Virus record (IMG/VR): IMGVR_UViG_3300022896_000002
Location: 1-42,270 of that record
Reading direction: 5' to 3' (one strand)
From: a virus
DNA: 42,270 nt
The notes below the pieces were generated by a model, which worked only from the letters and a program-made list of their open reading frames with translations, was not told the DNA's origin and made no database searches. Positions 861 to 32,203 of this stretch are shown piece after piece; positions within the stretch are counted from its first letter, which is position 1, and every line of letters begins with the position of its first letter. The position numbers and the translations under genes were made by a program.

Positions 861-3061
861 ATTACTCCTTGGTTATTAGCCGATAGGCTAGGTTCCGTTG
901 TTCCGCCGGGTGCTTCTGGAAGACCTGTTATCCCTGGCCTATCCTCTTCATCGTTCATTATCGCTACCCATATGCAGCGGCAGTTGAAATGTATTGGGGG
1001 CATCCATTTGGTGGCATAGTAAGTGGCCTCTTCAACCACGCTACTGTCCAGGTCGAGGCACACCTGACAGACCTTTGCATCTAATATAGCAGAGTATTGA
1101 TACGCATATATGTCCTTACTGAACTGTTGGAACACATCATCACGGCCAATATTTATGGCAGTTGTGATTATCGAACTAGCGGTAAGTGTCTCTTTCTCGT
1201 CAAAAAACAAGCTGAATGACGAAGCAATCAGAGAAAGTATATCACCAACAGACAGTTCTTGAACAGTGCTAAGTTTATTCTTCCTTACTGCGTCTGTAAC
1301 GATCGTCTTAAGGTTGAACAGCATATCAGCATACTGCTTCTCGACTATAGCTTTGGTGTGTTCTGCGATCAGTTCCTTTGACTTCTGCTTGTTAGATGGT
1401 GCGGATGCCTTTATCTCATCGGCTGCGCTATTCTTTGCGGCACTGTAGGCAGATACCATATGGTCTGACATTACCTTCTGGAGCTTGTCACCGAACTTTA
1501 GCTCAAACCCGTCGAGTGCTTTAGTACCCTTTTCTTCAAGCAAAGGCTTTAGACGGGTTGTGGCATCCTTGCTCATGTCAGTAAAGACAGGACGAAGATC
1601 ATCGATAAGCTTAGCCTCTTCGTCGTTCGCCTTCTTTTCGATTGATGAGAAGTTAACCTTTGATTCGGTGGTGGTCAGCTCGCGCCACCATTTAGATTTT
1701 GCGAGCTTAGTCACTTTTGTTGACTTGGATTGCTCAACTTTCTGGCCGGTGCCGTTTGTTGTATTGTCATTATCGTCGGGCTCTTCCTCGTCATCAGGCT
1801 TCTCTATGTCAAGTTGGTCGGCAACACGCTCAGCAATGCCATCTGTTATCCACTGAGGCAGAGTGCCCTTAGTTACCAGGGAGTTAAATGCTTCCCTAAG
1901 GAGCTTCTCATTTGCATCGCTTAAGTCATTAAATCTGAAAGATGAATATAAAGGCTTCTCGAAGTTATAATCATGAAGCTTTGGAATTAAGAAAGAATTA
2001 ATATGTTCTTCGATTGACATCATGGTCGATTTAATGCTGAGGATAAACAGGTCAGTATGGTTCTCGCTTAGCGCATAGCTACCACCGGCGCTGCTCTTTG
2101 TAGAGCCGAGCAAGAGCATCTGGGCAAGCAGTGATCGTGCCATTTGGGAGTCGTGGTGATCGATGTAAGGCAGCATGTCCATTGTCTGGCCAGGATTGTG
2201 TACGTTTAGCTTCCAGCCGAAGGGCAGAGATACACTTGGTCGTATAGCCATAGCATCTACTCTCGCAAGGTTAGCGGCCCTGACATCGTCGAGCACACCG
2301 TCTGGCTCTTCGAGACTCTTAGGGTTGATCGCTGAGGCCTGAGCCTGTTGATTTGCTAAGAAGTACAGCTTACGCTTATTAATGTAGTGCTTGTAGGCAG
2401 CAGTAAAGTTACTCATACCCTTAAGCTTCTTACGGTCCTTGCGGTTAGTGAACAGGAAGCAATATTGCAGGTCGATAGTTACTGTCGCTTGCTTGCCGTC
2501 TTTTGTCACTGTCTGCTTAACACCGCTAAAACCACCAGTGTCGTCGGCAAGTATGTCGACAGATCCATAGTCACGGCTAGCAAGCTTCTTGAATACTACA
2601 TTGCCATTATCATCGATCTTATAAACAATCTCGAAGAACTTATACCCCTGAGCGAGAGCAAGGAGCATCTCAGATAATACCAAGCTAAACGGAGTGGACA
2701 TGCCACCTTTGTGCTGTGGGTTACGAAATGCTGCCTCTGCTAAGTCTGCCTGAGGGTGTGTGATAGTCTCATCGCCGTTCTTGTCCTTAACCACAAGCTC
2801 ATCCTCAGGATCAGCGTCGATTCTCCATGAGGTTGCCAGCACCGGGAAGGTAATAACGCTGTAGAGCATGGCGGCAGTACCGTCAGTGTCAATCATATCC
2901 ATTATCTGGTGTACAGAGGGCTTCTTGCTCGTGTTAAAGTTCTCGTCAAGATAGTCCTGATATGATTTCGCGCCACTAGCTGCGCTGGAGCCCTGCTCTT
3001 TGCCAATATTTTTTGGTTGAGGTTCACGACTCAGTGTCACCTCATAGCCTAATATTTTCAC
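833..3061 (-). CDS. Portal protein (Mu gp29/DUF935-like) fused to a C-terminal MuF/SPP1 gp7-like minor head morphogenesis domain
   Basis: 742 aa. The GTG start is preceded by GGAGG. The N-terminal ~470 aa is portal-like and sits directly downstream of TerL. The C-terminus carries the MuF signature CQVCLDLD...WMPPIHFNCRCIWV. Confidence 0.85.
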   Translation of the reverse strand: MKILGYEVTLSREPQPKNIGKEQGSSAASGAKSYQDYLDENFNTSKKPSVHQIMDMIDTDGTAAMLYSVITFPVLATSWRIDADPEDELVVKDKNGDETITHPQADLAEAAFRNPQHKGGMSTPFSLVLSEMLLALAQGYKFFEIVYKIDDNGNVVFKKLASRDYGSVDILADDTGGFSGVKQTVTKDGKQATVTIDLQYCFLFTNRKDRKKLKGMSNFTAAYKHYINKRKLYFLANQQAQASAINPKSLEEPDGVLDDVRAANLARVDAMAIRPSVSLPFGWKLNVHNPGQTMDMLPYIDHHDSQMARSLLAQMLLLGSTKSSAGGSYALSENHTDLFILSIKSTMMSIEEHINSFLIPKLHDYNFEKPLYSSFRFNDLSDANEKLLREAFNSLVTKGTLPQWITDGIAERVADQLDIEKPDDEEEPDDNDNTTNGTGQKVEQSKSTKVTKLAKSKWWRELTTTESKVNFSSIEKKANDEEAKLIDDLRPVFTDMSKDATTRLKPLLEEKGTKALDGFELKFGDKLQKVMSDHMVSAYSAAKNSAADEIKASAPSNKQKSKELIAEHTKAIVEKQYADMLFNLKTIVTDAVRKNKLSTVQELSVGDILSLIASSFSLFFDEKETLTASSIITTAINIGRDDVFQQFSKDIYAYQYSAILDAKVCQVCLDLDSSVVEEATYYATKWMPPIHFNCRCIWVAIMNDEEDRPGITGLPEAPGGTTEPSLSANNQGVIWHTKMTTK

Positions 3062-3085
3062 TCTAGGGCCTCCATAATTTATGTT

Positions 3086-4597
3086 TTAGAATCCATTAAG
3101 ATTATTGTACAACTGATCGTAGGTTTGACCAACAGCAACCACAGCCTTTGCAGTGTCGTCAGTGAGACCGCTTATCATTCTTACCCAGTATGCAATCACT
3201 GCCGCATCTGCAATATCTGGACTGGCGCCGAGCCTCTTCTTGAGCTGGTCTTTGCTCTCCACTGCCAGTATTTTAGAACCGTTGTCGTATTCATGAAGCA
3301 ATAACTCTTTCTTTAAAGCGCTAATGAATGGACAACCGGAGTACATGAACATCATGCTGTTATCTGTATCCATTGCCCACTTATGGAACACCTGGGATCG
3401 AAGCATGTTGTATGGCGGCTTGATGTTTTTAGACTTCTCAGCTGGGGTCTGGTATGGTGCGTCACCTGCCCTAAACTGCCGAACCTTGTAGCCCTTCATG
3501 TGCATGTAGGTTAGCCACCCTTGACCGATTCCAACGACATCGCCTCCGATATGTGTATATCCTACACCTTCACGCTCTGCCATATCAATCGTAAGTCTAC
3601 CGATAATTGCACCCGGGTTGAATGGGTCAAGCTCAGCAGGAAGCGCTAGGCGCCTGAGGTCTTCCGTGGTGTACACTTCAATGTCGACAAACGTATCTTC
3701 TTCAAGCAACGCTATTACTGCACGGTCTTTACCACCGGCGTTAGGGTCAACACCTATATACCTTTGGCCGCGCTTAATGCGGTTTATGGTGAGGCTATCT
3801 AACGTCCTGCTCTTAAATAGCGACCCATCATCATCGAAATAGTTCCAGTTATTGTAGAGGAAACGCTGTTTCCAGCTCTCTGCATTCTGCATGAAGCCGT
3901 CATAGTATCCAGTGAGATACAGCGGGCTATCTTCCATCTCAAATTCGATTACCATAACGTTATCGGGTAGTGGATCGATAGCATCCCACTCGTCGACGCT
4001 CATGTTGTCTGGTCTGCGTCCTATCCTTTTAAGCCAGGGCAGATATACCTTTCGTTTAGTCCAGCCATCATTCGGGTTGCATGCCGAAAGCATCACACTC
4101 GGCGCGCCACCGTCGTTCCTGCGCCCTGTTCGTGACTGGAGCGTTATATATCCACCCTCGTCAACATCGTCCACCTCGTCAACGCCAGCAGTTGTAGCGG
4201 TGATCTTAAGCTTGGCCCAATCACGGTCGCGACTCTTGTTCATACCGATAAACTGTATGATAGAGCCCGTCTTAGTGAACTTTATTCTCAGATCATTGGC
4301 CGCCTGTCGTGTCGAGTAATGCTTTCCTGACACATATCCCATCTTGGAGAGTGCCTCCATGTAGACCTCCCAGGTACCAATCTGAGCTTCTGAGAGATCC
4401 TTACGTCCTACGGGTATGATTACGCGCTTGAACTGCTGGGCGATGCTGATATGAGTCATGGCCATAGCAAACGTCTTGGTGCTACCAATCGGTCCAATGA
4501 GGAATATCTCGGTAATGCCATTCTGTTTAGCATCACGAACCGCACACATTACCTCTGCTTGTTTAGGCCATGCACCAAATGGCAATTTTTCCTGCAT
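3086..4597 (-). CDS. terL: Terminase large subunit
   Basis: 503 aa. Walker A-like GPIGSTKT and Walker B-like TTAGVDEVDD. The C-terminal RNase-H-like nuclease has IGVDPNAGGKDRAV and SPDIADAAVIAYW. Position is between TerS and portal. Confidence 0.9.
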   Translation of the reverse strand: MQEKLPFGAWPKQAEVMCAVRDAKQNGITEIFLIGPIGSTKTFAMAMTHISIAQQFKRVIIPVGRKDLSEAQIGTWEVYMEALSKMGYVSGKHYSTRQAANDLRIKFTKTGSIIQFIGMNKSRDRDWAKLKITATTAGVDEVDDVDEGGYITLQSRTGRRNDGGAPSVMLSACNPNDGWTKRKVYLPWLKRIGRRPDNMSVDEWDAIDPLPDNVMVIEFEMEDSPLYLTGYYDGFMQNAESWKQRFLYNNWNYFDDDGSLFKSRTLDSLTINRIKRGQRYIGVDPNAGGKDRAVIALLEEDTFVDIEVYTTEDLRRLALPAELDPFNPGAIIGRLTIDMAEREGVGYTHIGGDVVGIGQGWLTYMHMKGYKVRQFRAGDAPYQTPAEKSKNIKPPYNMLRSQVFHKWAMDTDNSMMFMYSGCPFISALKKELLLHEYDNGSKILAVESKDQLKKRLGASPDIADAAVIAYWVRMISGLTDDTAKAVVAVGQTYDQLYNNLNGF

Positions 4598-4600
4598 AAT

Positions 4601-5065
4601 CTATTCTTTTTTGGTCTTTTTTGGCTTCTTAGCCTCAGCTGGGCGCATATTGAACACCATGAGCGGCACTATCTGCTCATCGTCGCTAGTAATATCCAGC
4701 CTGTCGCCATACTTCCTAGGTGCTAGTTTGGACATAAGCTTAAGCCTGGTATCTACCCTCAGCTTTGACCGTTGAACAACATCAAAGTCGGTCTTAACAT
4801 TGCCATTGCCATCAATGTAGGTATCGTTCTCGCCATCGTCAGCTATGTCAATAACCTGCTCGGCCCAGGCATCAGTCCGATCCTGGACAGCAAGGTCATA
4901 TTGGTTACGAAATTTCTGTAGTGAAGGCATCCCCCGCCATCTTAGTACTTGTGACTTCTCTGGCATGCCCTCTTCCTGGCAGATCTTACTCAAAGACTTG
5001 CCCGCGCGTATCCCCTGGCATATACGATCACCCATCGCTTTAGTAAAAACTGTATGACGTCCCAT
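4601..5065 (-). CDS. terS: Terminase small subunit (HTH type)
   Basis: 154 aa. N-terminal HTH-like ICQGIRAGKSLSKICQEEGMP...VLRW and C-terminal RSKLRVDTRLKLMSKLAPRKYGDR, typical of small terminase subunits. It lies immediately upstream of terL. Confidence 0.8.
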   Translation of the reverse strand: MGRHTVFTKAMGDRICQGIRAGKSLSKICQEEGMPEKSQVLRWRGMPSLQKFRNQYDLAVQDRTDAWAEQVIDIADDGENDTYIDGNGNVKTDFDVVQRSKLRVDTRLKLMSKLAPRKYGDRLDITSDDEQIVPLMVFNMRPAEAKKPKKTKKE

Positions 5066-5259: not shown

Positions 5260-6048
5260 CTAGTCCTTGGCGTTAGCAACTGACTTGCCTGGTGGCTTCG
5301 CAGTAGGCGGTGGCGTCTCGTACTTATCAAACGCACCAGACTTCAAGCGTTTCTTCTGATCCTTAACGATCTCTGAATAGGGCTTAGCCGGTGTGAGTAC
5401 AGGCATGGGCTCTTCTTCTATATCGAGCGCATCGCTCACACTAGTGTTTATCTTCGCTATGCCCTTATCAATCTGCCTCTGCTCTTTTACGGCCCTACTG
5501 CGCGACTTGCACTCGTATGAACAGTAATCACCAGTCTTAAGGTTTATCTTATCGCACCACTTACACTTCTTCACGGGCTTAGTGACAGGCTGCTCTACAA
5601 CAGATCCCGATGTGGTTGGTATGTTATCAAGGATGGTCGCACCCCTCGGTGAAACAGTAACAGACTCTATCTTCTCTAACTCAACTGGCCTGGGTGTCGT
5701 TGAGACTTCATCTGGTTTTTGTTTGGCCTCAGACCTTCTTTTAGCGGCAAGTTCTCTCTTGTATTTGAGGGAACAGGATTTGCATCGTCCCTGAACTGCG
5801 TCACTACGGTTATTACGAATATAGAAGTCTATTACCGGCTTCTTCTCACCACACATGCTGCAGACAGCGTACTCTCTTGACTTGAGTGATTTAAGCTTCT
5901 TTATCATGTCTTCAAGAGATGCTATTGCCTGTTCTATGATTTTGTTTTTATCAACAATAAATTCATACCTCAATTCCTCATTTTCTGAATCAAGTGTGTG
6001 CTTTATCTCTTTGATAAGTGGCGCTAAAGCCTCTTTAGATATGTTCAT
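5260..6048 (-). CDS. Zn-ribbon protein of unknown function, first gene of the minus-strand arm
   Basis: 262 aa with two Cys4 clusters (CSMCGEKK...CKSCS and CKWCDK...CSYECK). No Shine-Dalgarno is seen upstream of the ATG at 6048. Confidence 0.7.
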   Translation of the reverse strand: MNISKEALAPLIKEIKHTLDSENEELRYEFIVDKNKIIEQAIASLEDMIKKLKSLKSREYAVCSMCGEKKPVIDFYIRNNRSDAVQGRCKSCSLKYKRELAAKRRSEAKQKPDEVSTTPRPVELEKIESVTVSPRGATILDNIPTTSGSVVEQPVTKPVKKCKWCDKINLKTGDYCSYECKSRSRAVKEQRQIDKGIAKINTSVSDALDIEEEPMPVLTPAKPYSEIVKDQKKRLKSGAFDKYETPPPTAKPPGKSVANAKD

Positions 6049-6240
6049 GAAGTCACTCTATACTAAAAAATAGACTTGCGCAAATCGCTTATATTTGTGT
6101 ATGATGATTCTAGAGTTTAAAGCCGCAACCGCGGATGTGTCTTATAAGCTCACAACCACTACAAATAATAAAACATCAACAAAAAACCCAAGCTATTACA
6201 CTTGGATTTGTTTGTAAGCTAAGCGAGTGCTTAAACTTGT

Positions 6241-6269
6241 TTGCTCACGAACTACTACTCATTTATAGT
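6241..6269 (+). promoter_or_regulatory. Candidate early promoter for the first plus-strand operon
   Basis: TTGCTC (6241-6246), 17-nt spacer, TATAGT (6264-6269). It is followed by GGGAGG and the ATG at 6300. Confidence 0.45.
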
Positions 6270-6299
6270 AGCATGGTTTGGTGTGGGAGGCAATAGTTA

Positions 6300-6629
6300 A
6301 TGCAGAGAATTTCGGAGATTCCCCTCTATAGATCTATAGAAACTAAGGTACTTAAATCTTCTATAGAAACTATAGATTCTATAGAGAAAGAACCTTCGAG
6401 TGAAGCTAAGTTACGACACGAGAGAGCAGACCTGATCATTGATTCAATGCCTGACTTAGTTGATAGTAAATACCGGCCATTCTTTTTTAAGAAACTATAT
6501 ACACTTGGTCCAGAGTTATTTATTAAACTAGCTGAGCATGCACGTAAGTACGGTACGCATAAGAATGGTCAGAAGCTCTTCGTAAAACTATTAAAAGAAC
6601 AGTGCTTAGCTGTTCAGGAGAAGGCATAG
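6300..6629 (+). CDS. Hypothetical early protein (109 aa). Its 5' coding region carries the TCTATAGA site cluster.
   Basis: ORF track. GGGAGG lies about 10 nt upstream. The N-terminal residues ...YRSIETKVLKSSIETIDSIEK are encoded by the repeated DNA sites. Confidence 0.65.
   Translation: MQRISEIPLYRSIETKVLKSSIETIDSIEKEPSSEAKLRHERADLIIDSMPDLVDSKYRPFFFKKLYTLGPELFIKLAEHARKYGTHKNGQKLFVKLLKEQCLAVQEKA
6325..6385. repeat. Cluster of five copies of the 8-bp palindrome TCTATAGA, one of them degenerate (ACTATAGA). Candidate operator or origin iterons.
   Basis: Copies at 6325, 6333, 6360, 6369 (ACTATAGA) and 6378. The 13-mer TCTATAGAAACTA occurs twice (6333, 6360). Confidence 0.8.
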
Positions 6630-7057
6630 TGAACTATATTGGCTCAAACGATAACAAACAACGGATACGGGCTATATACGAGCATATCGAGATTGCTACT
6701 AACCAGGCATTCCATGAAGGTCTAAAGCTTGGCGTGAAAATGAAAAAACCTACCCAGGAGGAGTTCCACGAGCAGCATCAGGAACCGATGGAGTACATGA
6801 CTGGCAAGCAGTCACTGGCAACGTATGTGATCAGTGGCAAACTCAAAAAAGAAACTGCGGTTAGTAGATTTGAAGCATTCCTAGTACGTAAGAATGGCGA
6901 GCTGCCCGCTGGATTCAATGTTAGTGATAATGTTGAGCCCTGGGGCATTACCCTGACGATCGATGATCGCGGTGAGCCTGATTTCTACCTAGCAAATGAT
7001 ATTGATGGAATCTACCCGGCGTGGATACTCGAAACTAAGAAATGGGAGACAAAGTAA
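6629..7057 (+). CDS. Hypothetical early protein
   Basis: Same frame as the ORF-track entry 6602..7057. I prefer the GTG at 6629: GGAGAAGG lies 4 nt upstream and there is a TAGTG overlap with the upstream stop. Confidence 0.65.
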   Translation: MNYIGSNDNKQRIRAIYEHIEIATNQAFHEGLKLGVKMKKPTQEEFHEQHQEPMEYMTGKQSLATYVISGKLKKETAVSRFEAFLVRKNGELPAGFNVSDNVEPWGITLTIDDRGEPDFYLANDIDGIYPAWILETKKWETK

Positions 7058-7305
7058 TGAGAAAAATGGTTGGATATAAGACTCTTGAATCTAGGCTTAG
7101 TGAGCACCTTGATGAGTTGGTCATGGAATCAATGGATGATGGATGGACAGTTTATGGCAAGCAAAATGTTGCTGCTGCACATGATGGCTTACGTATGACT
7201 TACGCTTTCTTTCAAGTCATGGTCAAATACGAGTTCACTGATACCACCCCACCATCATTCGTACCTGAGATTCGAACAAGCGGGGAGCAGTATCATCAAC
7301 GCTAG
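7057..7305 (+). CDS. Hypothetical small protein, possibly DUF1737-like
   Basis: Same frame as the ORF-track entry 7042..7305. The ATG at 7057 has GGGAGA 7 nt upstream and a TAATG overlap. MRKMVGYKTLES...LDELVMESMDDGWTVYG resembles the DUF1737 pattern, recalled from memory only. Confidence 0.6.
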   Translation: MRKMVGYKTLESRLSEHLDELVMESMDDGWTVYGKQNVAAAHDGLRMTYAFFQVMVKYEFTDTTPPSFVPEIRTSGEQYHQR

Positions 7306-7323
7306 TATGCATCGATGCTAAAT

Positions 7324-7379
7324 GAAATAGCAGTCCCGGAGACAAACGAATGGAATCGTAAGAGTGGGGCTGCTATTTC
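7324..7379 (+). other. Long stem-loop after the last gene of early operon 1 (14 bp including one G-U). No U-tract.
   Basis: GAAATAGCAGTCCC (7324-7337) pairs with GGGGCTGCTATTTC (7366-7379). There is an inner ACGA/TCGT helix, and the stem is followed by AAAAAT rather than a T-run. Confidence 0.5.
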
Positions 7380-7419
7380 AAAAATGAGTATATCAGACTT
7401 ACTATATTTAGGAAACTCA

Positions 7420-7448
7420 TTGACAAATAGCCGCAGGCGGTATACAAT
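7420..7448 (+). promoter_or_regulatory. Conserved early promoter, copy 1
   Basis: TTGACA (7420-7425), 17-nt spacer AATAGCCGCAGGCGGTA, TACAAT (7443-7448). It belongs to a 4-member near-identical family. Confidence 0.7.
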
Positions 7449-7454
7449 GAAAGA

Positions 7455-7582
7455 GTACATTAATAAACAGTTTTGACTAGCTAAATGGGAAGACAAGGAC
7501 GAAATGAATTATAATTTGAGGTTTTTAACTACTAACGCAAATATAGATTCATGCTTGGTCTTTGCCTTTCCAATCTATTGGG
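7455..7582 (+). ncRNA. AT-rich 5' leader of the candidate giant ncRNA (predicted transcription start to the first helix). Its status is unresolved, because a weak 53-aa ORF (7504..7665) with an AAGGA upstream begins here.
   Basis: The transcription start is predicted about 7 nt downstream of the -10 element at 7443-7448. I found no significant helices in this stretch, and the 53-aa ORF runs on into helix set 7583-7674. Confidence 0.3.
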
Positions 7583-8361
7583 CTGGACATTCTACGAAGC
7601 AAGAAATCCCAAAGTCGTGCAAGTCTCATCGGAGACCCTTTATCGCAAGGGTAGAGACTCTCTAGATTGTCCAGTTCATAGTTATGTCAGCAGGATCAAT
7701 TAAGCGTAGTAGTGCTGGTAGTAAGGAAAAACGACGACCGCACTCGTACAGGGGCTACTAGCGGAATGCCCCGACTTACTACTAGCACCATACGCTTAAT
7801 TGAACACATGGAAGGGTTGCCAAAAGAGTAATCTGCGGCATGGTGCGGCTTTCGAGCCAATCGCTTTGCTGACCCAGTCCATGACTGCTGACTGAATGCT
7901 GGTAATGAGTGGCGGAATAGGTAGACGCATACTTTGGCAACGGTAAGGAAGTAAAGTGGCGGGAAATCGTTGTGCAGGTTGTGGCCCGTCTTACAGCGCA
8001 AGTGACTCATACTTAAAGGTCGTAGTGTAAGCGGAGTGCATAGGCGAGCAGCCCAGAACATCATGCAGGGTGACTATACGAGTAATAGGGTTGAAAGTCC
8101 CGACGGCATGGAAAAGTGCCCAAACACTCGTCAAATCCCTGCCTCATTACCAGCACCAAGATATTGTGTAGTGACACATGGTAGTAAGAGTCCATTATTG
8201 GAGCTGGCGTAATAATCAATAGGCCAATGGCGCATGCTAGACCCTGCGTTATCTTGAAACTCCTGTAATGCTTACTACTAGCTGCTACTACACAATATTC
8301 CAGTTCTGGCTATATGGCGCCGCTAATAACGGTACTGCGTATGCCATATAGCCAGAACTGG
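7583..8361 (+). ncRNA. Structured core (~780 nt) of the candidate giant ncRNA; family not identifiable by eye
   Basis: No plus-strand ORF of 60 aa or more lies in 7306-8404. Nested helices: 7583-7589/7668-7674; 7697-7708/7791-7802 plus 7712-7725/7775-7788; 7898-7909/8143-8154 (12 bp perfect, 234 nt apart) enclosing 8065-8070/8137-8142; 8161-8172/8287-8298 plus 8181-8188/8271-8278; 8300-8318/8343-8361 (19 bp perfect). Confidence 0.55.
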
Positions 8362-8416
8362 CTAGTCAAATGCGAGAGTAAGGAGACAAAATGTTTAAAA
8401 ACTTATGGAGCCAAAT

Positions 8417-8647
8417 ATGCCAATAGACATCAACCTAGCAAACAGAGTCCACGATATAGCCCACCAGCTTACTATGCAGCCAATACGCTCAGGCTCTATA
8501 AAGGTTCGAAAGCCCCATCCACACGCGTACATGATAGGAGCAGAAGAGAGAATGACTATTAAGAAAGTTACTATCGAGATAGAGTTTTATGATAGCTCAG
8601 TGACCGATTGGCTCGATGGTATGTTCGGACAGGGTGCCAAAAAATGA
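8417..8647 (+). CDS. Hypothetical early protein
   Basis: Same frame as the ORF-track entry 8405..8647. The ATG at 8417 has GGAG 6 nt upstream. The strong AAGGAGA at 8380 instead serves an 11-codon mini-ORF (8391-8426) that overlaps this start. Confidence 0.6.
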   Translation: MPIDINLANRVHDIAHQLTMQPIRSGSIKVRKPHPHAYMIGAEERMTIKKVTIEIEFYDSSVTDWLDGMFGQGAKK

Positions 8648-8952
8648 GCTCCGATGCTTATGTATGTGTACTAAATATCTTTCTTGAATCCAAAAAGAAG
8701 GAGTTCCCAGATTGGCATATGCATCATAAATGGCCGATCAGGAAACAGAATAGTACTGCCATCAGCTTCACATCAGACACGCTGAAACGTTTTGGTGGGC
8801 TTGAGTCCGGGAAAGTAGTAAGTGTTAAGCTGTCCGGAGACGATGGATACATATCTATTAAACCCTACTATCGCAAGCGAATGGGCAATGACCTGCACAT
8901 ATTTGCAGTTGAAGTTCCTAGTGTTAAGGAAAGATTGGAAGGAAAAATCTAG
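8644..8952 (+). CDS. Hypothetical early protein
   Basis: Same frame as the ORF-track entry 8608..8952. I prefer the ATG at 8644 because of its ATGA overlap with the upstream stop. Confidence 0.6.
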   Translation: MSSDAYVCVLNIFLESKKKEFPDWHMHHKWPIRKQNSTAISFTSDTLKRFGGLESGKVVSVKLSGDDGYISIKPYYRKRMGNDLHIFAVEVPSVKERLEGKI

Positions 8953-8953
8953 C

Positions 8954-9145
8954 ATGGATATGAAAATGGTTGATAATGAGGATCAGCGTGACGACCGTAA
9001 GAAGGTACCGATTAATGGCCTGAACAGGATCACTCGACGAAAGCTTGCAAAGGCTGACCGCGTATTTCGAAAGAAAGGTTTGTGGAAGCACCTAAGTCGT
9101 GAGCATCGCAAGCGAAGCGGCCATACCGATAACGACAAAGACTAA
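8954..9145 (+). CDS. Hypothetical basic protein (63 aa)
   Basis: Same frame as the ORF-track entry 8822..9145. The ATG at 8954 follows the upstream stop by 1 nt. The protein is Lys/Arg-rich. Confidence 0.55.
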   Translation: MDMKMVDNEDQRDDRKKVPINGLNRITRRKLAKADRVFRKKGLWKHLSREHRKRSGHTDNDKD

Positions 9146-9163
9146 TATCTAAGAAAGGATGTC

Positions 9164-9496
9164 ATGAACCCTCATAGACATGAAATGGCTCAGGAGCTAA
9201 CAAAGACCTATTTCCCGGCTCTATGGGACATGCGCCAACACCAGATAGGAAACCAGCCGGTACTTATCGTGAAGTGCCAGAGCCCACAGATATATATATT
9301 AACCCAGACAGTTAAAATGTATAAAGCGATAATCGGGGGCGAGAATGATAATAGCGATGAAGCCGTACCCACTGAAGACAAAGAGCTTAGCAACTCTTAC
9401 TCAGTCGTGATACCTGCGCGCTATTTCTGCATACAGTGCTACAACTCATTCGATACCCTAAGAAACTTTAGACGTCACTTCTCTGACGATGACTAA
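9164..9496 (+). CDS. Hypothetical early protein with a C-terminal CxxC...H element
   Basis: ORF track (110 aa). AAGGA lies upstream. The C-terminus is FCIQCYNSFDTLRNFRRH. Confidence 0.65.
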   Translation: MNPHRHEMAQELTKTYFPALWDMRQHQIGNQPVLIVKCQSPQIYILTQTVKMYKAIIGGENDNSDEAVPTEDKELSNSYSVVIPARYFCIQCYNSFDTLRNFRRHFSDDD

Positions 9497-9527
9497 TTAA
9501 CAGACTCCCAAAAGCGGAGTCTGTTAA
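9497..9527 (+). terminator. Hairpin ending early operon 2 (12-bp perfect stem, weak U-tract)
   Basis: TTAACAGACTCC (9497-9508) pairs with GGAGTCTGTTAA (9516-9527) across a 7-nt loop. It starts directly after the stop codon and lies directly before the next promoter copy. Confidence 0.55.
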
Positions 9528-9532
9528 AGTTA

Positions 9533-9561
9533 TTGACAATTAGCCGCAGGCGGTGTAAACT
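9533..9561 (+). promoter_or_regulatory. Conserved early promoter, copy 2
   Basis: TTGACA (9533-9538), spacer ATTAGCCGCAGGCGGTG (17 nt), TAAACT (9556-9561). Confidence 0.7.
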
Positions 9562-9588
9562 AGAGCTATGGTAAAGGAGACAAACCAA

Positions 9589-9786
9589 ATGGAAAAAATA
9601 TTAAAACTTCTACGCGCTATCATTGCTAAGGCAGGTTATTGCGCGCACAGTAATTATGGGGCTATCGTTCATCAACCATATTTGTTCTGGGGCAAACTAG
9701 TCACACCAGAAACAAGGACTTGTGTTGATTGCGGAAAGACATACAAAACTAACTCTGAAGTGTCAGAGATAATTCTTGGAGAATAG
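9589..9786 (+). CDS. Hypothetical small protein with a CxxC motif
   Basis: Same frame as the ORF-track entry 9568..9786. The ATG at 9589 has AAAGGAGA 8 nt upstream, while 9568 would coincide with the predicted transcription start. Confidence 0.6.
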   Translation: MEKILKLLRAIIAKAGYCAHSNYGAIVHQPYLFWGKLVTPETRTCVDCGKTYKTNSEVSEIILGE

Positions 9787-9787
9787 T

Positions 9788-9904
9788 ATGGAAGAGTTCA
9801 AGAGATACGTTAAGGAGCTGTTCGCAGTCGCAGTCTTTGGTCTGCTCATTGGGACCGTCGTGCTTGCTGTAATAGTATATGTTAATTCTGTTGGTGGAGC
9901 TTAG
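9788..9904 (+). CDS. Small membrane peptide (38 aa), below the ORF-track cutoff
   Basis: Hand-translated: MEEFKRYVKELFAVAVFGLLIGTVVLAVIVYVNSVGGA. It fills the gap between neighbouring genes exactly. Confidence 0.45.
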   Translation: MEEFKRYVKELFAVAVFGLLIGTVVLAVIVYVNSVGGA

Positions 9905-9906
9905 GC

Positions 9907-10599
9907 ATGAAATACAAAGTCGGCCAAAAAGTGAGAATAAATGAAGATAACTTTATAGCAAACAGAAAATCTGACGGTACCTACCAGGAGGATGCTATAT
10001 ATGTATTCAGCAGCGGTACGGTTGTTGCCTACCAGGCTGGTAATGAACCCTACCTAGTCGAGATTGATATAGCTAGCCAAGATAGAACACTATCAAGTTA
10101 CTATGAATCCGACCTCGAACCACTCCTACCATCTGACCTCGAACCACTCGAAGAACCCAAAATGAAATACAAAGTTGGCCAAAAAGTAAGGATTATTGGT
10201 AATCATGACATCAATGGCGATGAACTATATTATCAATCAATGATTGGAGAAGTAGACACAATAGAGAGAGTTGACGAACAAAGTAGGTATCCTTATTATC
10301 TGTTTAACCAATACACCAACTTCCTAGAATCCGACCTAGAACCGGTCGAAGAGCCCAAAACACTAGACAACCTCCAGCCCGGTGATGAGCTATATAACGA
10401 TGGTAACAGGATAACCGTTTTGGCTAAAATACCGGCATACACTGTGAGATACGATGGTGGCCACGAGGGTGAGCTCACAACCAGGCTTCTTAAAGATTTT
10501 GGCTATGTCATCGCCCAAGACACTATCAAGATAGATGGCAAGACCTATAAGAAGCAAGCTGTAATGCAAGCGCTAAGTAATTTAGAGGAGATTAAGTAA
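9907..10599 (+). CDS. Hypothetical protein with a tandemly duplicated module
   Basis: 230 aa. MKYKVGQKVRI occurs at residues 1 and 86, and each module ends in ESDLEP(L/V)EEPK. The DNA repeat atgaaatacaaagtYggccaaaaagt occurs at 9907 and 10162. Confidence 0.7.
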   Translation: MKYKVGQKVRINEDNFIANRKSDGTYQEDAIYVFSSGTVVAYQAGNEPYLVEIDIASQDRTLSSYYESDLEPLLPSDLEPLEEPKMKYKVGQKVRIIGNHDINGDELYYQSMIGEVDTIERVDEQSRYPYYLFNQYTNFLESDLEPVEEPKTLDNLQPGDELYNDGNRITVLAKIPAYTVRYDGGHEGELTTRLLKDFGYVIAQDTIKIDGKTYKKQAVMQALSNLEEIK

Positions 10600-12831: not shown

Positions 12832-13597
<766 letters not shown>

Positions 13598-13598
<1 letters not shown>

Positions 13599-18472: not shown

Positions 18473-18658
18473 ATGATAACAAAAATAGCGGCTGCCGTGA
18501 TAATACTAATCCTTATGGCATCGGTAGCCACGTTTGTGGCACTTGGCATATTACTCATGGCTATTGGTGCATGGTCAGAGTTCGGCTTCTATGCCGGGCT
18601 CTGCGTTGTCATAGCGATGTGTTTTATCATGGCCCTATTGGTGGCTTCATGGAGGTGA
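18473..18658 (+). CDS. Small two-TM membrane protein
   Basis: ORF track (61 aa), almost entirely hydrophobic. Confidence 0.6.
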   Translation: MITKIAAAVIILILMASVATFVALGILLMAIGAWSEFGFYAGLCVVIAMCFIMALLVASWR

Positions 18659-18807
18659 ATTACTGCAAAGACTGTTACCACATAAAGCGATGGCTTGACT
18701 CCCTACCTACCTTTATGTGGACTGATGACCTATATTGCTATCTGATAGTTTCGAATGCACCTTACTACTGTAGATCCTATATCATAAAGGAGGGTATTGA
18801 CAAATAG
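18649..18807 (+). CDS. Cys-rich small hypothetical protein (52 aa)
   Basis: Same frame as the ORF-track entry 18571..18807. I prefer the ATG at 18649, which overlaps the upstream stop. The stop TAG lies inside the spacer of promoter copy 4. Confidence 0.45.
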   Translation: MEVNYCKDCYHIKRWLDSLPTFMWTDDLYCYLIVSNAPYYCRSYIIKEGIDK

Positions 18808-25577: not shown

Positions 25578-27173
25578 TTAAAGAGCTAATCTATCAGCAC
25601 CGTCTAGCTGTGAGTGGTCGAGCTGGAAGTAAGTCTGCAGTGTCCTTTGCTCAAGATTCAATTGCTGCGTAAGCTTTGCGGGATAGTCCATAGCGATTGT
25701 GTATCCCATCACCTGAGAGTCGTAAGACTCTGCGGTATCAGGGATGGTGATATTTATAGAGTCACCTATCTGCACTTGTGGCACGGCGAAGTTATTCAAC
25801 GTAAGACGCGCAAGCGGATTACTGAAGAACCTCACTAGCATATATCCCAGGGCGTTGGCGCTAGTAACGTCTTGAACTAGATTGTTCTCAATGACTATAG
25901 TTGATCCCCCATCGTCTGGGTTAAGACCGTACTCGTCGATGCTTGTTTGATCTCTCTGTGGCAATGAACTGACCGCGGTTACCTTAGCAGGCTGACCGTA
26001 CAGTTGGATATTAGTAATGTATATAGGTTGAGTGCCGCTGTTAGAGAACGTCATGCGGTATTTGCTACCAAAGTTGTAGGTACTATCAAGCGTAATGAAA
26101 GCGTTCCCAGCAGCACCGCTACCATCGATGCTAAGGTTCGTTGAGTAGACGCTTGTACCGACATTGCTAGAAACATACACTGGATCAGTCACACTTATTG
26201 CAACAAATTCCCCCTCATCGTCTCTGAACTCGGCGAATATATCTTTTGATCCGCCAGGAGGTATCATTGTCTCATCACTGGCGTCAGCAAGCTCGAACAT
26301 CTTATTATATGCAGCGGGCTTTAGAGGCCGGGCGTTAACTGACACGTCATTGATTATGCTCGTGGTATCCCATTCAATGCCTGCCGTATTATCATAGTCG
26401 AACGACCATTGTGTGGTCTGATTATATATAAAGTGCAATCGGTTCCACCATTGGATTATTCCCTGCTCATCAACAAAGGCTAGCGCACCCTCGGCCTCAC
26501 ACAGTTCCTGTATCATTTCGGTGACTATACGATCCTTGGGCATGAAGTAGCCAATCGGCTGCTGAATGCTTTCTTCGATATTAAACTGTGATGAAGTGAA
26601 CCCCTGTTCTATAAGCAGTTCCTCAATTATCTCATTAGCGCGCATGTTTATCATTGTGCCTAGCGAGCTTTTCTTGTTGCTAAGATAGCTCATAGCATCG
26701 AAGCACTGCAATACAGTCTTCCTGTTTGTGACGGTATTAATGGGACGTTCAGTGTAACCGGTAAAGAGATTTATGAACTCACCATTAAATCCGACGGATA
26801 GCTTAATAGGTCGGTCTCTTACGATATTACCGCCAATTATAGGATCATATCCGGGCATGAATCTCTTCGACGCGTTGTTAAGCACGACATCGGCTTGTGC
26901 CGTTATTACGCCCCATGGTCTAGAGCTGACTTTCTTAGTGATGCGAAAGCTATCAACATACTGGCTCTCGTTAATATAATCATAACGGTCGAAAAAGCTA
27001 ACGCTGCTCTCAACTCCCTTTAGCTTATCATTCCCATCAAGGTGTGAATGATCAAGCTGAAAGAACGTCGTAGAGGGGTCAATATTCTTTAGCCAAGATA
27101 TTAATACCCCGAACTGTGGCTCTCGGTAATTAGCGGCTGTCTCCGTACTGAAATTCATACTGACGGCTTGCAT
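25578..27173 (-). CDS. Tail tip / baseplate hub-like protein
   Basis: 531 aa, second gene after the tape measure. FQLDHS(H/Q)LDG(N/A)D(K/R)L occurs at both the N- and C-termini. Confidence 0.65.
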   Translation of the reverse strand: MQAVSMNFSTETAANYREPQFGVLISWLKNIDPSTTFFQLDHSHLDGNDKLKGVESSVSFFDRYDYINESQYVDSFRITKKVSSRPWGVITAQADVVLNNASKRFMPGYDPIIGGNIVRDRPIKLSVGFNGEFINLFTGYTERPINTVTNRKTVLQCFDAMSYLSNKKSSLGTMINMRANEIIEELLIEQGFTSSQFNIEESIQQPIGYFMPKDRIVTEMIQELCEAEGALAFVDEQGIIQWWNRLHFIYNQTTQWSFDYDNTAGIEWDTTSIINDVSVNARPLKPAAYNKMFELADASDETMIPPGGSKDIFAEFRDDEGEFVAISVTDPVYVSSNVGTSVYSTNLSIDGSGAAGNAFITLDSTYNFGSKYRMTFSNSGTQPIYITNIQLYGQPAKVTAVSSLPQRDQTSIDEYGLNPDDGGSTIVIENNLVQDVTSANALGYMLVRFFSNPLARLTLNNFAVPQVQIGDSINITIPDTAESYDSQVMGYTIAMDYPAKLTQQLNLEQRTLQTYFQLDHSQLDGADRLAL

Positions 27174-31748: not shown

Positions 31749-32203
31749 TATCTACGTGATCTCATTAAACTTACCAGATATGCCTGGAATGCTTTTTGTA
31801 TATATTGCCTTCGCTCTTCATCTACCTTCATCATAACACGACGTGGCAGCTTGTACCGCGGCTTGTTACTTTGGTGATATACGAAGTAAGGTGCCTTGTT
31901 TGATATGGTCAGTGAGTTCTTATCAACTATGCTCTCAAAGCTTTGGCGCATCTCGCCTGTCTTCTGTAATAGTGGCCAGGTATCTATACGTATGCCGTCA
32001 CGATATTGTGGCTTACGTTCTCTCCAGCCACCGAACAGGCTACCTTCATCATCAAAGTTGTCATCAAATGTCTTCTTTAGCTCACCACCAATCTTATTGA
32101 GTGGGTCGGTAAAATCTGTTACGCCGTCGGCTACTATGAGTAACCGACGGCTAAGCTGCTTTTCACCTTCAAGCTCAACTGATAATTCAATGCCGCCTGG
32201 CAT
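31748..32203 (-). CDS. Virion morphogenesis protein (Mu gpG / tail-completion-like)
   Basis: 151 aa. The pattern ...PLNKIGGELKKTFDDNFDDEGSLFGGWRERKP... resembles the virion morphogenesis family, recalled from memory. Confidence 0.6.
   Translation of the reverse strand: MPGGIELSVELEGEKQLSRRLLIVADGVTDFTDPLNKIGGELKKTFDDNFDDEGSLFGGWRERKPQYRDGIRIDTWPLLQKTGEMRQSFESIVDKNSLTISNKAPYFVYHQSNKPRYKLPRRVMMKVDEERRQYIQKAFQAYLVSLMRSRR

Follow-up and report, generated by a model that had tools for sequence, protein, structure and literature searches.

The virus record IMGVR_UViG_3300022896_000002 raises the question of what is specified by an interval of phage DNA devoid of open reading frames (ORFs). In the window, as we call the whole analyzed stretch of 42,270 nucleotides (nt; positions 1 to 42,270 of that record), this interval runs from the stop codon of a gene for 87 amino acids, at position 7305, to a ribosome-binding site at 8380. 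The original prediction, made from the letters alone, placed there a giant structured non-coding RNA, possibly of a new class. Our best reading is that the locus encodes a large structured RNA whose class is missing from Rfam; this follows from its lack of coding capacity, its exceptional fold, its own promoter, the absence of an Rfam match and the compensatory changes in its relatives. To this extent the earlier proposal stood, but the RNA turned out to be a modular composite, in which two of the previously listed domains are phage-specific insertions, and a tRNA-Leu-like element (TLE), to which two of the listed helices appear to belong, had been overlooked.

The overall explanation that we find best, and to which we assign a probability of roughly 0.6, is that a modular phage RNA engages, through its TLE, host factors that read the tRNA elbow. 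According to this proposal, the promoter at 7420-7448 would drive synthesis of an RNA whose first ~0.9 kb (~7455-8375) is non-coding, closed and composed of several domains, and which would represent a small uncatalogued family of modular RNAs of phages and prophages.

Fold, coding capacity and relatives of the locus

Folding of the plus strand of 7450-8400 (951 nt) with RNAfold gave -349 kcal/mol, compared with -269 +/- 7 kcal/mol in dinucleotide shuffles (z = -11.4). When the plus strand of the genome was scanned in 176 segments of 240 nt (background z = -0.5 +/- 1.7), the two lowest values of z (-8.1 and -7.4) and the fifth lowest one (-5.3) fell into this locus, which confirms the assertion that its helices exceed chance expectation. 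All ten helices described previously are present. Nine of them are perfect Watson-Crick duplexes, and the remaining one (7712-7725/7775-7788) consists of 13 Watson-Crick pairs and one G-U pair. They were recovered by an independent search for repeats, which added a long-range closing helix, P0 (Table 1).

The coding capacity of the locus is low, as had been claimed. The longest plus-strand ORF comprises 58 amino acids, the three plus frames contain 20, 26 and 23 stop codons, with TAA, TAG and TGA mixed in them, and the longest gap between stops is 207 nt. None of the small plus-strand ORFs is kept in the relative L001 (described below), so that an intact ORF common to homologues was not found there. 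The only long ORF, located on the minus strand (7696-8064, 122 amino acids), has neither a match in Pfam or PHROG nor a counterpart in L001, and is almost certainly spurious. A search of Rfam 15 at gathering score gave nothing in the whole window, and at E <= 10 only chance hairpin-shaped matches to microRNA models and the like appeared in 7200-8500 and in the compact locus of L001. Covariance models of GOLLD, ROOL, tRNA, tmRNA, Y RNA, OLE, HEARO, raiA, RNase P RNA and group I or group II introns gave no match, and the last five kinds were dropped as candidates on this ground. ARAGORN found neither a tRNA nor a tmRNA in the window.

The promoter reported at the beginning of the locus is indeed of consensus quality (Table 1). 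Both its hexamers are identical in L001 despite a diverged spacer, TTGACT-17-TACACT occupies the equivalent place in L099, and GTACATTRATAA follows the -10 box in the window, L001 and L099. The terminator-type hairpin which ends the upstream operon is also kept in L001, where TTTTCAATTTT, a proper T run, comes after it. An upstream terminator hairpin together with a promoter whose hexamers were kept while the spacer diverged suggests that the locus is a transcription unit of its own.

Neither the locus nor 25 kb of the window, used as BLAST queries, matched any of 50,697 deposited phage records, searches of IMG/VR with flanking proteins gave no relatives, and exact-protein look-ups of window proteins returned no record; six relatives of the large RNA (L001, L099, L088, L221, L225 and L229) were nevertheless detected with other probes. 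L001 is an IMG/VR contig found by a terminase search; its terminase large subunit is 80% identical, the gene order is shared, and an ORF-free gap of ~770 nt lies at the place matching the locus. Domain D (Table 1) used as a probe yielded L088, L099 and also L097, while a genome scan for TLEs of the insertion type yielded L221 (an Antrihabitans prophage), L225 and L229 (an Arthrobacter prophage). In the six relatives, which include uncultured phages, the modular RNA measures ~0.5-0.9 kb (0.57 kb in L001). The loci found with these two probes are ORF-free stretches of 0.3-0.75 kb; z of the sense strand amounted to -14.4 (L001), -7.2 (L088), -6.6 (L229), -5.7 (L221), -4.3 (L225) and -2.5 (L099); it was lower than that of the antisense strand in five of the six.

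Helices shared with the homologues contain compensatory changes, as the original prediction required, and G-U changes. In L001, one A-U pair of P0 is replaced by G-U, the equivalent of helix P-E (GCCAGCAGG/CCTGCTGGC) contains a compensatory U-A to C-G change, the stems of domain F are kept with G-U to G-C changes under an unrelated tip, and hairpin G differs by two double compensatory pairs and three G-U pairs. Since a G-U pair corresponds to an A-C mismatch on the other strand, these changes speak for selection on the plus-strand RNA. Analogous closing helices of 17-18 bp (base pairs), unrelated in sequence to P0, are present in L221, L229, L225 and L099.

The relatives differ from each other by insertions and deletions of whole hairpins. 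The segment 7496-7806 of the window is represented in L001 by only ~50 nt; domains B (7575-7681) and C (7696-7803) are absent from this closest relative, thus we consider them lineage-specific insertions outside the conserved core, and a shorter hairpin of different sequence stands at the position of domain A. Homologues of domain C (TTGAGCGTAGTAG...ATACGCTYAAT) are found in L099, L088 and L225, where their position differs from that in the window, and include a pair series A-U, G-U, G-C. Domain D is built of an outer stem, AGGG, a hairpin (4-bp stem, 13-15-nt loop) and an invariant GGUGC-GGCU-UUCG-AGCC-AAUC; it is found also in L088, L099, L097 and L221, and in a variant form in L225, and its inner 4-bp stem covaries (TGCC/GGCA, GCGC/GCGC, GCCC/GGGC, AGCC/GGCT). 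A homologue of hairpin G (CCAGTTCTGAGTAGGTG...GAACTGG) is present in L229.

These parts are combined in various ways. L099 and L088 contain domain D and a homologue of domain C, without a TLE; L229 contains a TLE and the homologue of the terminal hairpin, without domain D; and in L221 a TLE is accompanied by domain D placed at the tip of a AGCUAGUAGUAAG/CUUACUACUAGCU stem. One and the same stem (ACATGGACATATAAG/CTTATATGTTCA; in RNA ACAUGGACAUAUAAG/CUUAUAUGUUCA) bears the TLE in L229 and L221, and domain D in L099, which is direct evidence for exchange of modules between RNAs. Three hairpins of the window have related stems (7712-7725, 7897-7909 and 8179-8188, each with its partner strand), and elsewhere in the genome this motif, with up to one mismatch allowed, gave a single one-mismatch match, at 25622. 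Five kinds of part make up the family: the closing helix, hairpins with related stems (GCUGGUAGUAAG/CUUACUACUAGC), domain D, the terminal hairpin and, in most members, the TLE. The closing helix, the domain D motif (GGUGCGGCUUUCGAGCCAAU), the GUAGUAAG/CUUACUAC stems and the CCAGUUC...GAACUGG terminal hairpin all occur in the window, and each of these four features is common to the window and at least two relatives. In our reading, the related stems act as sockets, and the tips which they hold are modules that can be exchanged. As different tips are carried on one stem, the modules should be separable, which makes the question about function of this RNA more tractable.

The tRNA-Leu-like element

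Two of the helices described in the original prediction, 7898-7909/8143-8154 and 8065-8070/8137-8142, appear, in their sequence context, to be the closing stem and the T stem of a TLE. The closing stem has 13 bp (7897-7909/8143-8155, UGCUGGUAAUGAG/CUCAUUACCAGCA). It is followed by U8-G9 and a D arm (7910-7928, UG-GCG-GAAUAGGUAGA-CGC) of the bacterial tRNA-Leu type with one base changed; this 19-mer has one exact occurrence in the window, against 0 expected by chance. A variable middle of 136 nt (7929-8064), unrelated in sequence, leads to a T stem of 6 bp (GCAGGG, 8065-8070; CCCTGC, 8137-8142), which is preceded by CAT. The T loop starts with TG and ends with TCAAAT, and is split by a junction, ACUAUA, a hairpin (stem 8078-8083/8126-8131) and one further nucleotide. 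The window thereby fits the template of an insertion subtype, TGACTATA-CGAG-(44 nt)-CTCG-TCAAAT, as do 23 other loci.

A 22-nt probe derived from the D arm detected at least 80 loci in IMG/VR; among the matches listed, ~13 are ordinary tRNA-Leu genes and ~55 share the TLE template. In the latter, a closing stem of 6-26 bp, free in sequence, precedes the D arm, after which come a variable middle, AU, G-CARGG, the T loop (UGCAAAU, or interrupted by an inserted hairpin), CCYUG-C and the 3' strand of the stem. An independent 19-nt probe for the T arm gave more than 120 viral loci, and the D arm, with up to five changes, lies upstream in 107 of the 120 T-arm matches listed. In this set, in which the closing stem was not selected for, the D stem covaries (G10-C25 to A-U or C-G; C11-G24 to U-A), the closing stem has exactly 7 bp at 64 of 104 loci among the matches listed, and the base after it is A at 77 of these 104, then followed by a U-rich trailer with no CCA encoded.

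In an alignment of 77 distinct core sequences, pairing is seen in 97.6% of cells and 14 of 17 pairs change on both sides, values to be read with the reservation that the parser of the alignment required T-stem pairing and that each probe fixed one arm, so that these parts are biased. None of 500 shuffles reached the observed values, and slid controls were ~40% paired. The inserted hairpin of the T loop covaries too: in L045 all pairs of its CGAG/CUCG stem are exchanged, giving CUCG/CGAG. Little or no variation is seen at U8, A14, A15, U48, G18, G19, C56, U54, A58 and G53-C61, while the middle varies from 8 nt (in L111) to 232 nt. On these grounds we consider it very likely that the element is a tRNA-Leu-like structure. 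Its origin as a phage attachment site (attP) or another tRNA fragment was considered and rejected: what an integration site retains of a tRNA gene is normally its 3' portion, but in the TLE conservation is highest in the D arm, on the 5' side, and covariation is seen among the elements.

At least 200 phage and prophage loci, belonging to many phyla, carry a TLE, and all of them are unannotated in this respect. The element is present in Bacillus phages SPP1 (X97918.2, between genes 9 and 11) and phi3T (after yonN), in Listeria phages B054, B025, PSA and LP-101 among many others, in Enterococcus phage EFP01 and its relatives (within a tRNA cluster), and in phages of Lactiplantibacillus, Latilactobacillus, Weissella and Brochothrix. 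The insertion type was found in genomes, or contigs of metagenome-assembled genomes, labelled Arthrobacter, Antrihabitans, Salipiger, Sulfuricurvum, Aquaspirillum, Chitinophaga, Saccharibacteria and Gracilibacteria, among others. No match to the TLE probe was detected in 5,426 genomes of Escherichia coli. As a rule, a TLE occupies a short gap on the coding strand; its first nucleotide is often no more than 40 nt from a stop codon, and a terminator sometimes follows. No TLE was called by ARAGORN at 12 loci, and the Rfam search at gathering score of 39 related loci returned ordinary tRNA genes and one DUF3800-VIII motif outside the elements; the corresponding sites are blank in GenBank records as well. 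If the TLE has been identified correctly, a common phage RNA has escaped standard annotation, even in textbook phages. No description of it was found in the literature searched; an overlap with the 10,006 anonymous candidate phage RNAs from IMG/VR, including tRNA-like ones, reported by Fremin et al. 2023 (PMC10690425) may exist.

Several further observations were made at the TLE loci. In SPP1 (~1607-1665 of the locus L082) a second hairpin lies directly 3' of the TLE. The tip of this hairpin resembles a canonical T arm (GCGGG-UUCAAUU-CCCGG). As in a terminator, a U run comes after the stem, and the hairpin matches the Rfam tmRNA model weakly (E = 0.018). At 1408-1488 of the Listeria phage B054 locus (L083), a weak match (E = 0.12) to the small RNA family rli62 ends immediately before the TLE, hence the latter may be part or neighbour of a transcript known from transcriptomes of Listeria prophages. 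The DUF3800-VIII motif mentioned above was found at 3358-3423 of the phi3T locus (L093), ~1.3 kb downstream of the TLE.

How could such an element act? RNase P, RNase Z and the CCA-adding enzyme recognize the helix of the acceptor and T arms together with the elbow. Leucyl-tRNA synthetase (LeuRS) of E. coli reportedly reads A73 and features of the D arm and tertiary structure rather than the anticodon, and is said to charge a minimal tRNA-Leu devoid of the anticodon and variable arms. The TLE retains the nucleotides of the elbow and core and the coaxial helix formed by the closing stem and the T stem, with the anticodon and variable arms exchanged for free sequence. Its conserved parts are those recognized by the elbow-reading factors, therefore we infer that it may present a tRNA elbow to host proteins which read this structure and the acceptor, i.e. 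RNase P, RNase Z, the CCA-adding enzyme and LeuRS. That any partner should be a host factor is suggested also by the lack of a neighbouring protein family common to TLE loci, as none was found among 47 of them. The pattern of conservation thus offers a short list of partners, although the choice of any particular one is doubtful.

The fate of the element may depend on its form. The simple form found in phages of Firmicutes, with a 7-bp stem, discriminator A and a U-rich trailer, would probably be excised like a tRNA and provided with CCA, and may be leucylated; the 13-bp helix made by its closing stem and T stem, G55 and the missing anticodon should keep it away from decoding. The form present in the window, locked in a 13-bp internal stem of the scaffold, would more likely serve as a bound decoy or handle, or as a module for processing or stabilization of the early transcript; excision is less likely here in view of the long internal stem and of the hairpin at the elbow face. 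A more far-reaching version, in which the scaffold represents a new class of large modular RNA with sockets, and the TLE a widespread anticodon-less mimic of tRNA-Leu engaging a universal host factor of tRNA handling, is in our opinion tentative. The same must be said about the idea, belonging to this version, that the free 7-bp TLE is leucylated yet unusable by the ribosome; we treat it as speculative.

If the engagement of elbow-reading factors occurs, it would be an RNA-only way for phages to tap, block or decoy host tRNA biology or immunity directed at tRNA. Cleavage of tRNAs and modification of their ends are frequent anti-phage strategies. Decoys of tRNA are thus a plausible counter-measure, and the TLE could be linked to the conflict between phage and host over tRNA.

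Several points weigh against this explanation. The T loop of the window is split between positions 55 and 56 and has G55 instead of U, because of which the canonical elbow face may not form. An internal closing stem of 13 bp, as in the window, does not favour the action of RNase P or RNase Z. The ACCA that follows this stem was rejected as a 3' CCA end: it is not general, since in L027 and L039 it is taken up into the continuing helix, and GCACCA occurs also inside paralogous stems. Only six relatives of the large RNA are available, and as their module content differs, one common function of the scaffold is not established. The 5' and 3' ends of the RNA, both in this phage and in its relatives, are predictions, and with no terminator after the RNA in the window, L001, L099, L221 and L229 it may never be a separate molecule. 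As clues to the host, the terminase large subunit, the capsid and the tape measure protein gave remote matches only. The bias of the covariation alignment, mentioned above, belongs to the same list.

Alternative explanations and setting of the locus

The strongest of the competing explanations, already raised in the original prediction, is a very long structured 5' leader, acting purely in cis to tune stability, processing or translation of the downstream early genes, with no role in trans. The part of it concerning the primary transcript, as predicted, agrees with our results: no terminator-like site was found in 7449-8400, or between the RNA and the ribosome-binding site at 8380-8386, which leaves room for a co-transcribed leader, and the window, L001, L099, L221 and L229 all run directly into a Shine-Dalgarno sequence (8380-8393 with the ATG in the window). 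Moreover, the segment 7464-7469 (UAAACA) is predicted to be able to pair with 8392-8397 (UGUUUA), across the first start codon, and many TLEs elsewhere follow an ORF after 0-40 nt on the coding strand. On the other hand, this pairing is not evident in L001, the genes downstream of the RNA are unrelated among the relatives, the RNA of L088 ends in a terminator after which a new promoter follows, and TLEs are found also in tRNA clusters and directly before terminators. We therefore regard a leader function alone as unlikely.

Insertion of whole hairpins could also be explained without any benefit for the phage, by a selfish or neutral accumulation of a decayed tRNA-Leu pseudogene and mobile palindromic hairpins in a permissive intergenic place. 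The absence of domains B and C from L001, the presence of hairpins similar to domain C at different positions in different phages, the unusually long and perfect stems, and genes for HNH endonucleases near several loci are consistent with such a pile-up. However, a decayed pseudogene would not be expected to keep all the nucleotides of tertiary interactions, with compensatory changes, across hundreds of very divergent phages. The shared helices with their G-U intermediates and double changes, the conserved promoter and 5' start, and an architecture which is always nested and closed by a long-range helix also argue against this scenario, and we find it improbable.

An element acting at the level of DNA, i.e. 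a replication origin, a packaging site or a recombination hot spot working through cruciforms or protein-binding inverted repeats, is suggested by the many inverted repeats, by the distance of 2.3 kb from the gene for the small terminase (4601-5065) and the vicinity of an HNH gene, and by the minus strand, which is also structured beyond chance (-312 kcal/mol, z = -7.7). Nevertheless, G-U pairs make the plus strand more stable by 37 kcal/mol, their alternation with G-C pairs in relatives would be meaningless in duplex DNA, a conserved promoter fires into the locus, and TLEs, with their conserved tertiary nucleotides of tRNA, stand at unrelated genome positions, always on the coding strand; hence this explanation is hardly tenable. 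Finally, membership in a described family (GOLLD, ROOL, Y RNA/YrlA, tmRNA or intron-containing tRNA-Leu), which the likenesses to GOLLD and YrlA discussed below might suggest, is highly improbable, as Rfam searches of the window, L001 and the related loci and the ARAGORN runs were negative in this respect, TLE parts stand in tRNA order, and the length of the middle regions is insufficient, and their variability too great, for group I or II introns.

The modular RNA engaging elbow-reading factors thus remains our preferred explanation, and the features of its locus are collected in Table 1. The source genome, of ~42 kb, looks complete and is of the siphophage type, with a Mu-like portal and capsid, a small terminase of the Sf6 type and a tape measure protein. 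A second start (GGAG-ATG, at 8417) lies 3' of the 11-codon ORF which follows the RNA.

Table 1. Predicted parts of the RNA and signals around it, in order of position in the window
Feature	Positions	Strand	Remarks
Terminator-type hairpin, end of upstream operon 6300-7305	7323-7380	+	15-bp inverted repeat, 93% complementary
Sigma-70-type promoter, TTGACA-17-TACAAT	7420-7448	+	11 of 12 consensus positions; best match in 6000-10000
Predicted 5' end of the RNA, conserved start GTACATTAATAA	7455-7468	+	putative transcription start
Closing helix P0 (5' strand / 3' strand)	7472-7481 / 8361-8370	+	10 bp, perfect; arms 879 nt apart
Domain A, long irregular hairpin	7486-7572	+	in minimum-free-energy fold
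Domain B, branched hairpin, phage-specific	7575-7681	+	holds helix 7583-7589/7668-7674 and inner hairpins, verified
Helix P-E, enclosing domains C and D	7686-7693 / 7885-7892	+	8 bp in minimum-free-energy fold
Domain C, hairpin of 13 bp and 14 bp	7696-7803	+	helices verified
Domain D, conserved UUCG-hairpin motif	7806-7884	+	86% identical to L001
TLE, insertion type	7897-8155	+	fits family template position by position
Domain F, long hairpin, stems of 14 bp and 10 bp, variable tip	8160-8299	+	helices verified
Hairpin G, terminal hairpin, 19-bp perfect stem	8300-8361	+	verified
Shine-Dalgarno AAGGAG and 11-codon ORF (ATG at 8391)	8380-8426	+	read from sequence; ORF overlaps start of next gene

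Some observations concern the surroundings of the locus. A second near-consensus promoter, TTGACA-17-TAAACT, lies at 9533-9561 on the same strand, ~2.1 kb downstream of the first one. A gene similar to those for HNH endonuclease or endonuclease VII occupies 5260-6048 (minus strand), 1.2 kb from the RNA locus; genes of the HNH type flank the RNA or the TLE also in L088, L229 and L011, which recalls the HNH genes reported beside GOLLD. The product of the phage gene at 13110-13598 contains a 3'-5' exoribonuclease domain, Rv2179c-like or of the RNase T family, and may be a DNA exonuclease of the replication module. Outside the locus, stable segments of 240 nt were detected on the plus strand at 18481-18720 (z = -6.2), 31921-32160 (z = -6.4) and 2881-3120 (z = -5.0); at the latter two, where genes have the minus orientation, the strand that is transcribed may differ from the one scanned.

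Comparison with known RNAs

GOLLD is the known RNA closest in kind to that of the window. It is giant and borne by phages and prophages, including those of Actinobacteria, its 5' part is variable, a tRNA or pseudo-tRNA may be present in its linker, HNH genes and tRNA islands are found nearby, and it forms a homo-oligomeric nanocage. Both RNAs are very large, structured and modular, and in the window RNA, too, a tRNA-like part is embedded and an HNH gene lies close by. The likeness to GOLLD and ROOL pointed out in the original prediction is therefore one of kind, but not of membership. The GOLLD model, with its conserved 3' domain, gave no match at E <= 10 in 7200-8500 of the window or in the compact L001 locus (2600-3260), and none at gathering score elsewhere; the 39 related loci, with domain D, GUAGUAAG stems or a TLE, were devoid of GOLLD matches. 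Moreover, the embedded element of the window is an anticodon-less mimic and not a decodable tRNA. ROOL, also large, structured and phage-borne, and often located near tRNA genes, differs in size and motifs, and its covariance model matched neither the window nor L001 nor the related loci.

The TLE itself resembles class II tRNA-Leu in U8-G9, the 3-bp D stem and the 11-nt D loop (GCG-GAAUAGGUAGA-CGC), in the kept A15/U48, G18G19, C56, U54/A58 and G53-C61, and in the frequent A at the discriminator position. It differs in having neither an anticodon arm nor a regular variable arm, in the T loop UGCAAAU with G55, in the lack of an encoded CCA, and in the T stem of 6 rather than 5 bp, due to which the closing stem and T stem together amount to 13 rather than 12 bp. 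The hairpin in the T loop and the closing stem of 13 bp are peculiar to the type present in the window. In agreement with these differences, none of the TLEs tested matched the tRNA model RF00005.

Among tRNA mimics of bacteria the closest one is YrlA, a Y RNA which occurs in some phages too and on which RNase P, TruB and DusA act (Chen et al. 2014, PMC4201824). Like the TLE, it does not decode but imitates the D arm, T arm and elbow of tRNA. However, YrlA is permuted, with the T arm before the D arm, its acceptor stem is closed, a Ro-binding stem stands on the anticodon side, the gene lies within 4 kb of a Ro60/TROVE gene, and a GNCGAAN0-1G motif is present (PMC4201824). In the TLE the D arm precedes the T arm and the closing stem is open, there is no Rfam match and no shared protein neighbour, thus membership was rejected; a TROVE domain was absent from the 30 window proteins scanned, a set which does not cover every small ORF. 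The TLE shares with tmRNA a tRNA-like domain in which the 5' and 3' ends come together and a large insertion stands where the anticodon arm would be; tmRNA was rejected on account of the third stem pair being U-A rather than G3-U70, no tag reading frame, no reduced D loop, and negative results of ARAGORN and Rfam.

In plant mitochondrial t-elements, in mascRNA derived from MALAT1 and in the minimal tRNA-Leu, conservation is confined to the elbow and the helix of the acceptor and T arms, and the RNA can do without the anticodon domain, as would be expected for RNase P, RNase Z, the CCA-adding enzyme and LeuRS. These RNAs are organellar, eukaryotic or engineered, and no equivalent handle of DNA phages was described in the literature searched; processing of the phage TLE is a prediction. 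Should the reading proposed here prove correct, the scaffold carrying the TLE in the window would be a third kind of giant phage RNA, beside GOLLD and ROOL, and, unlike these two, one in which modularity is visible.

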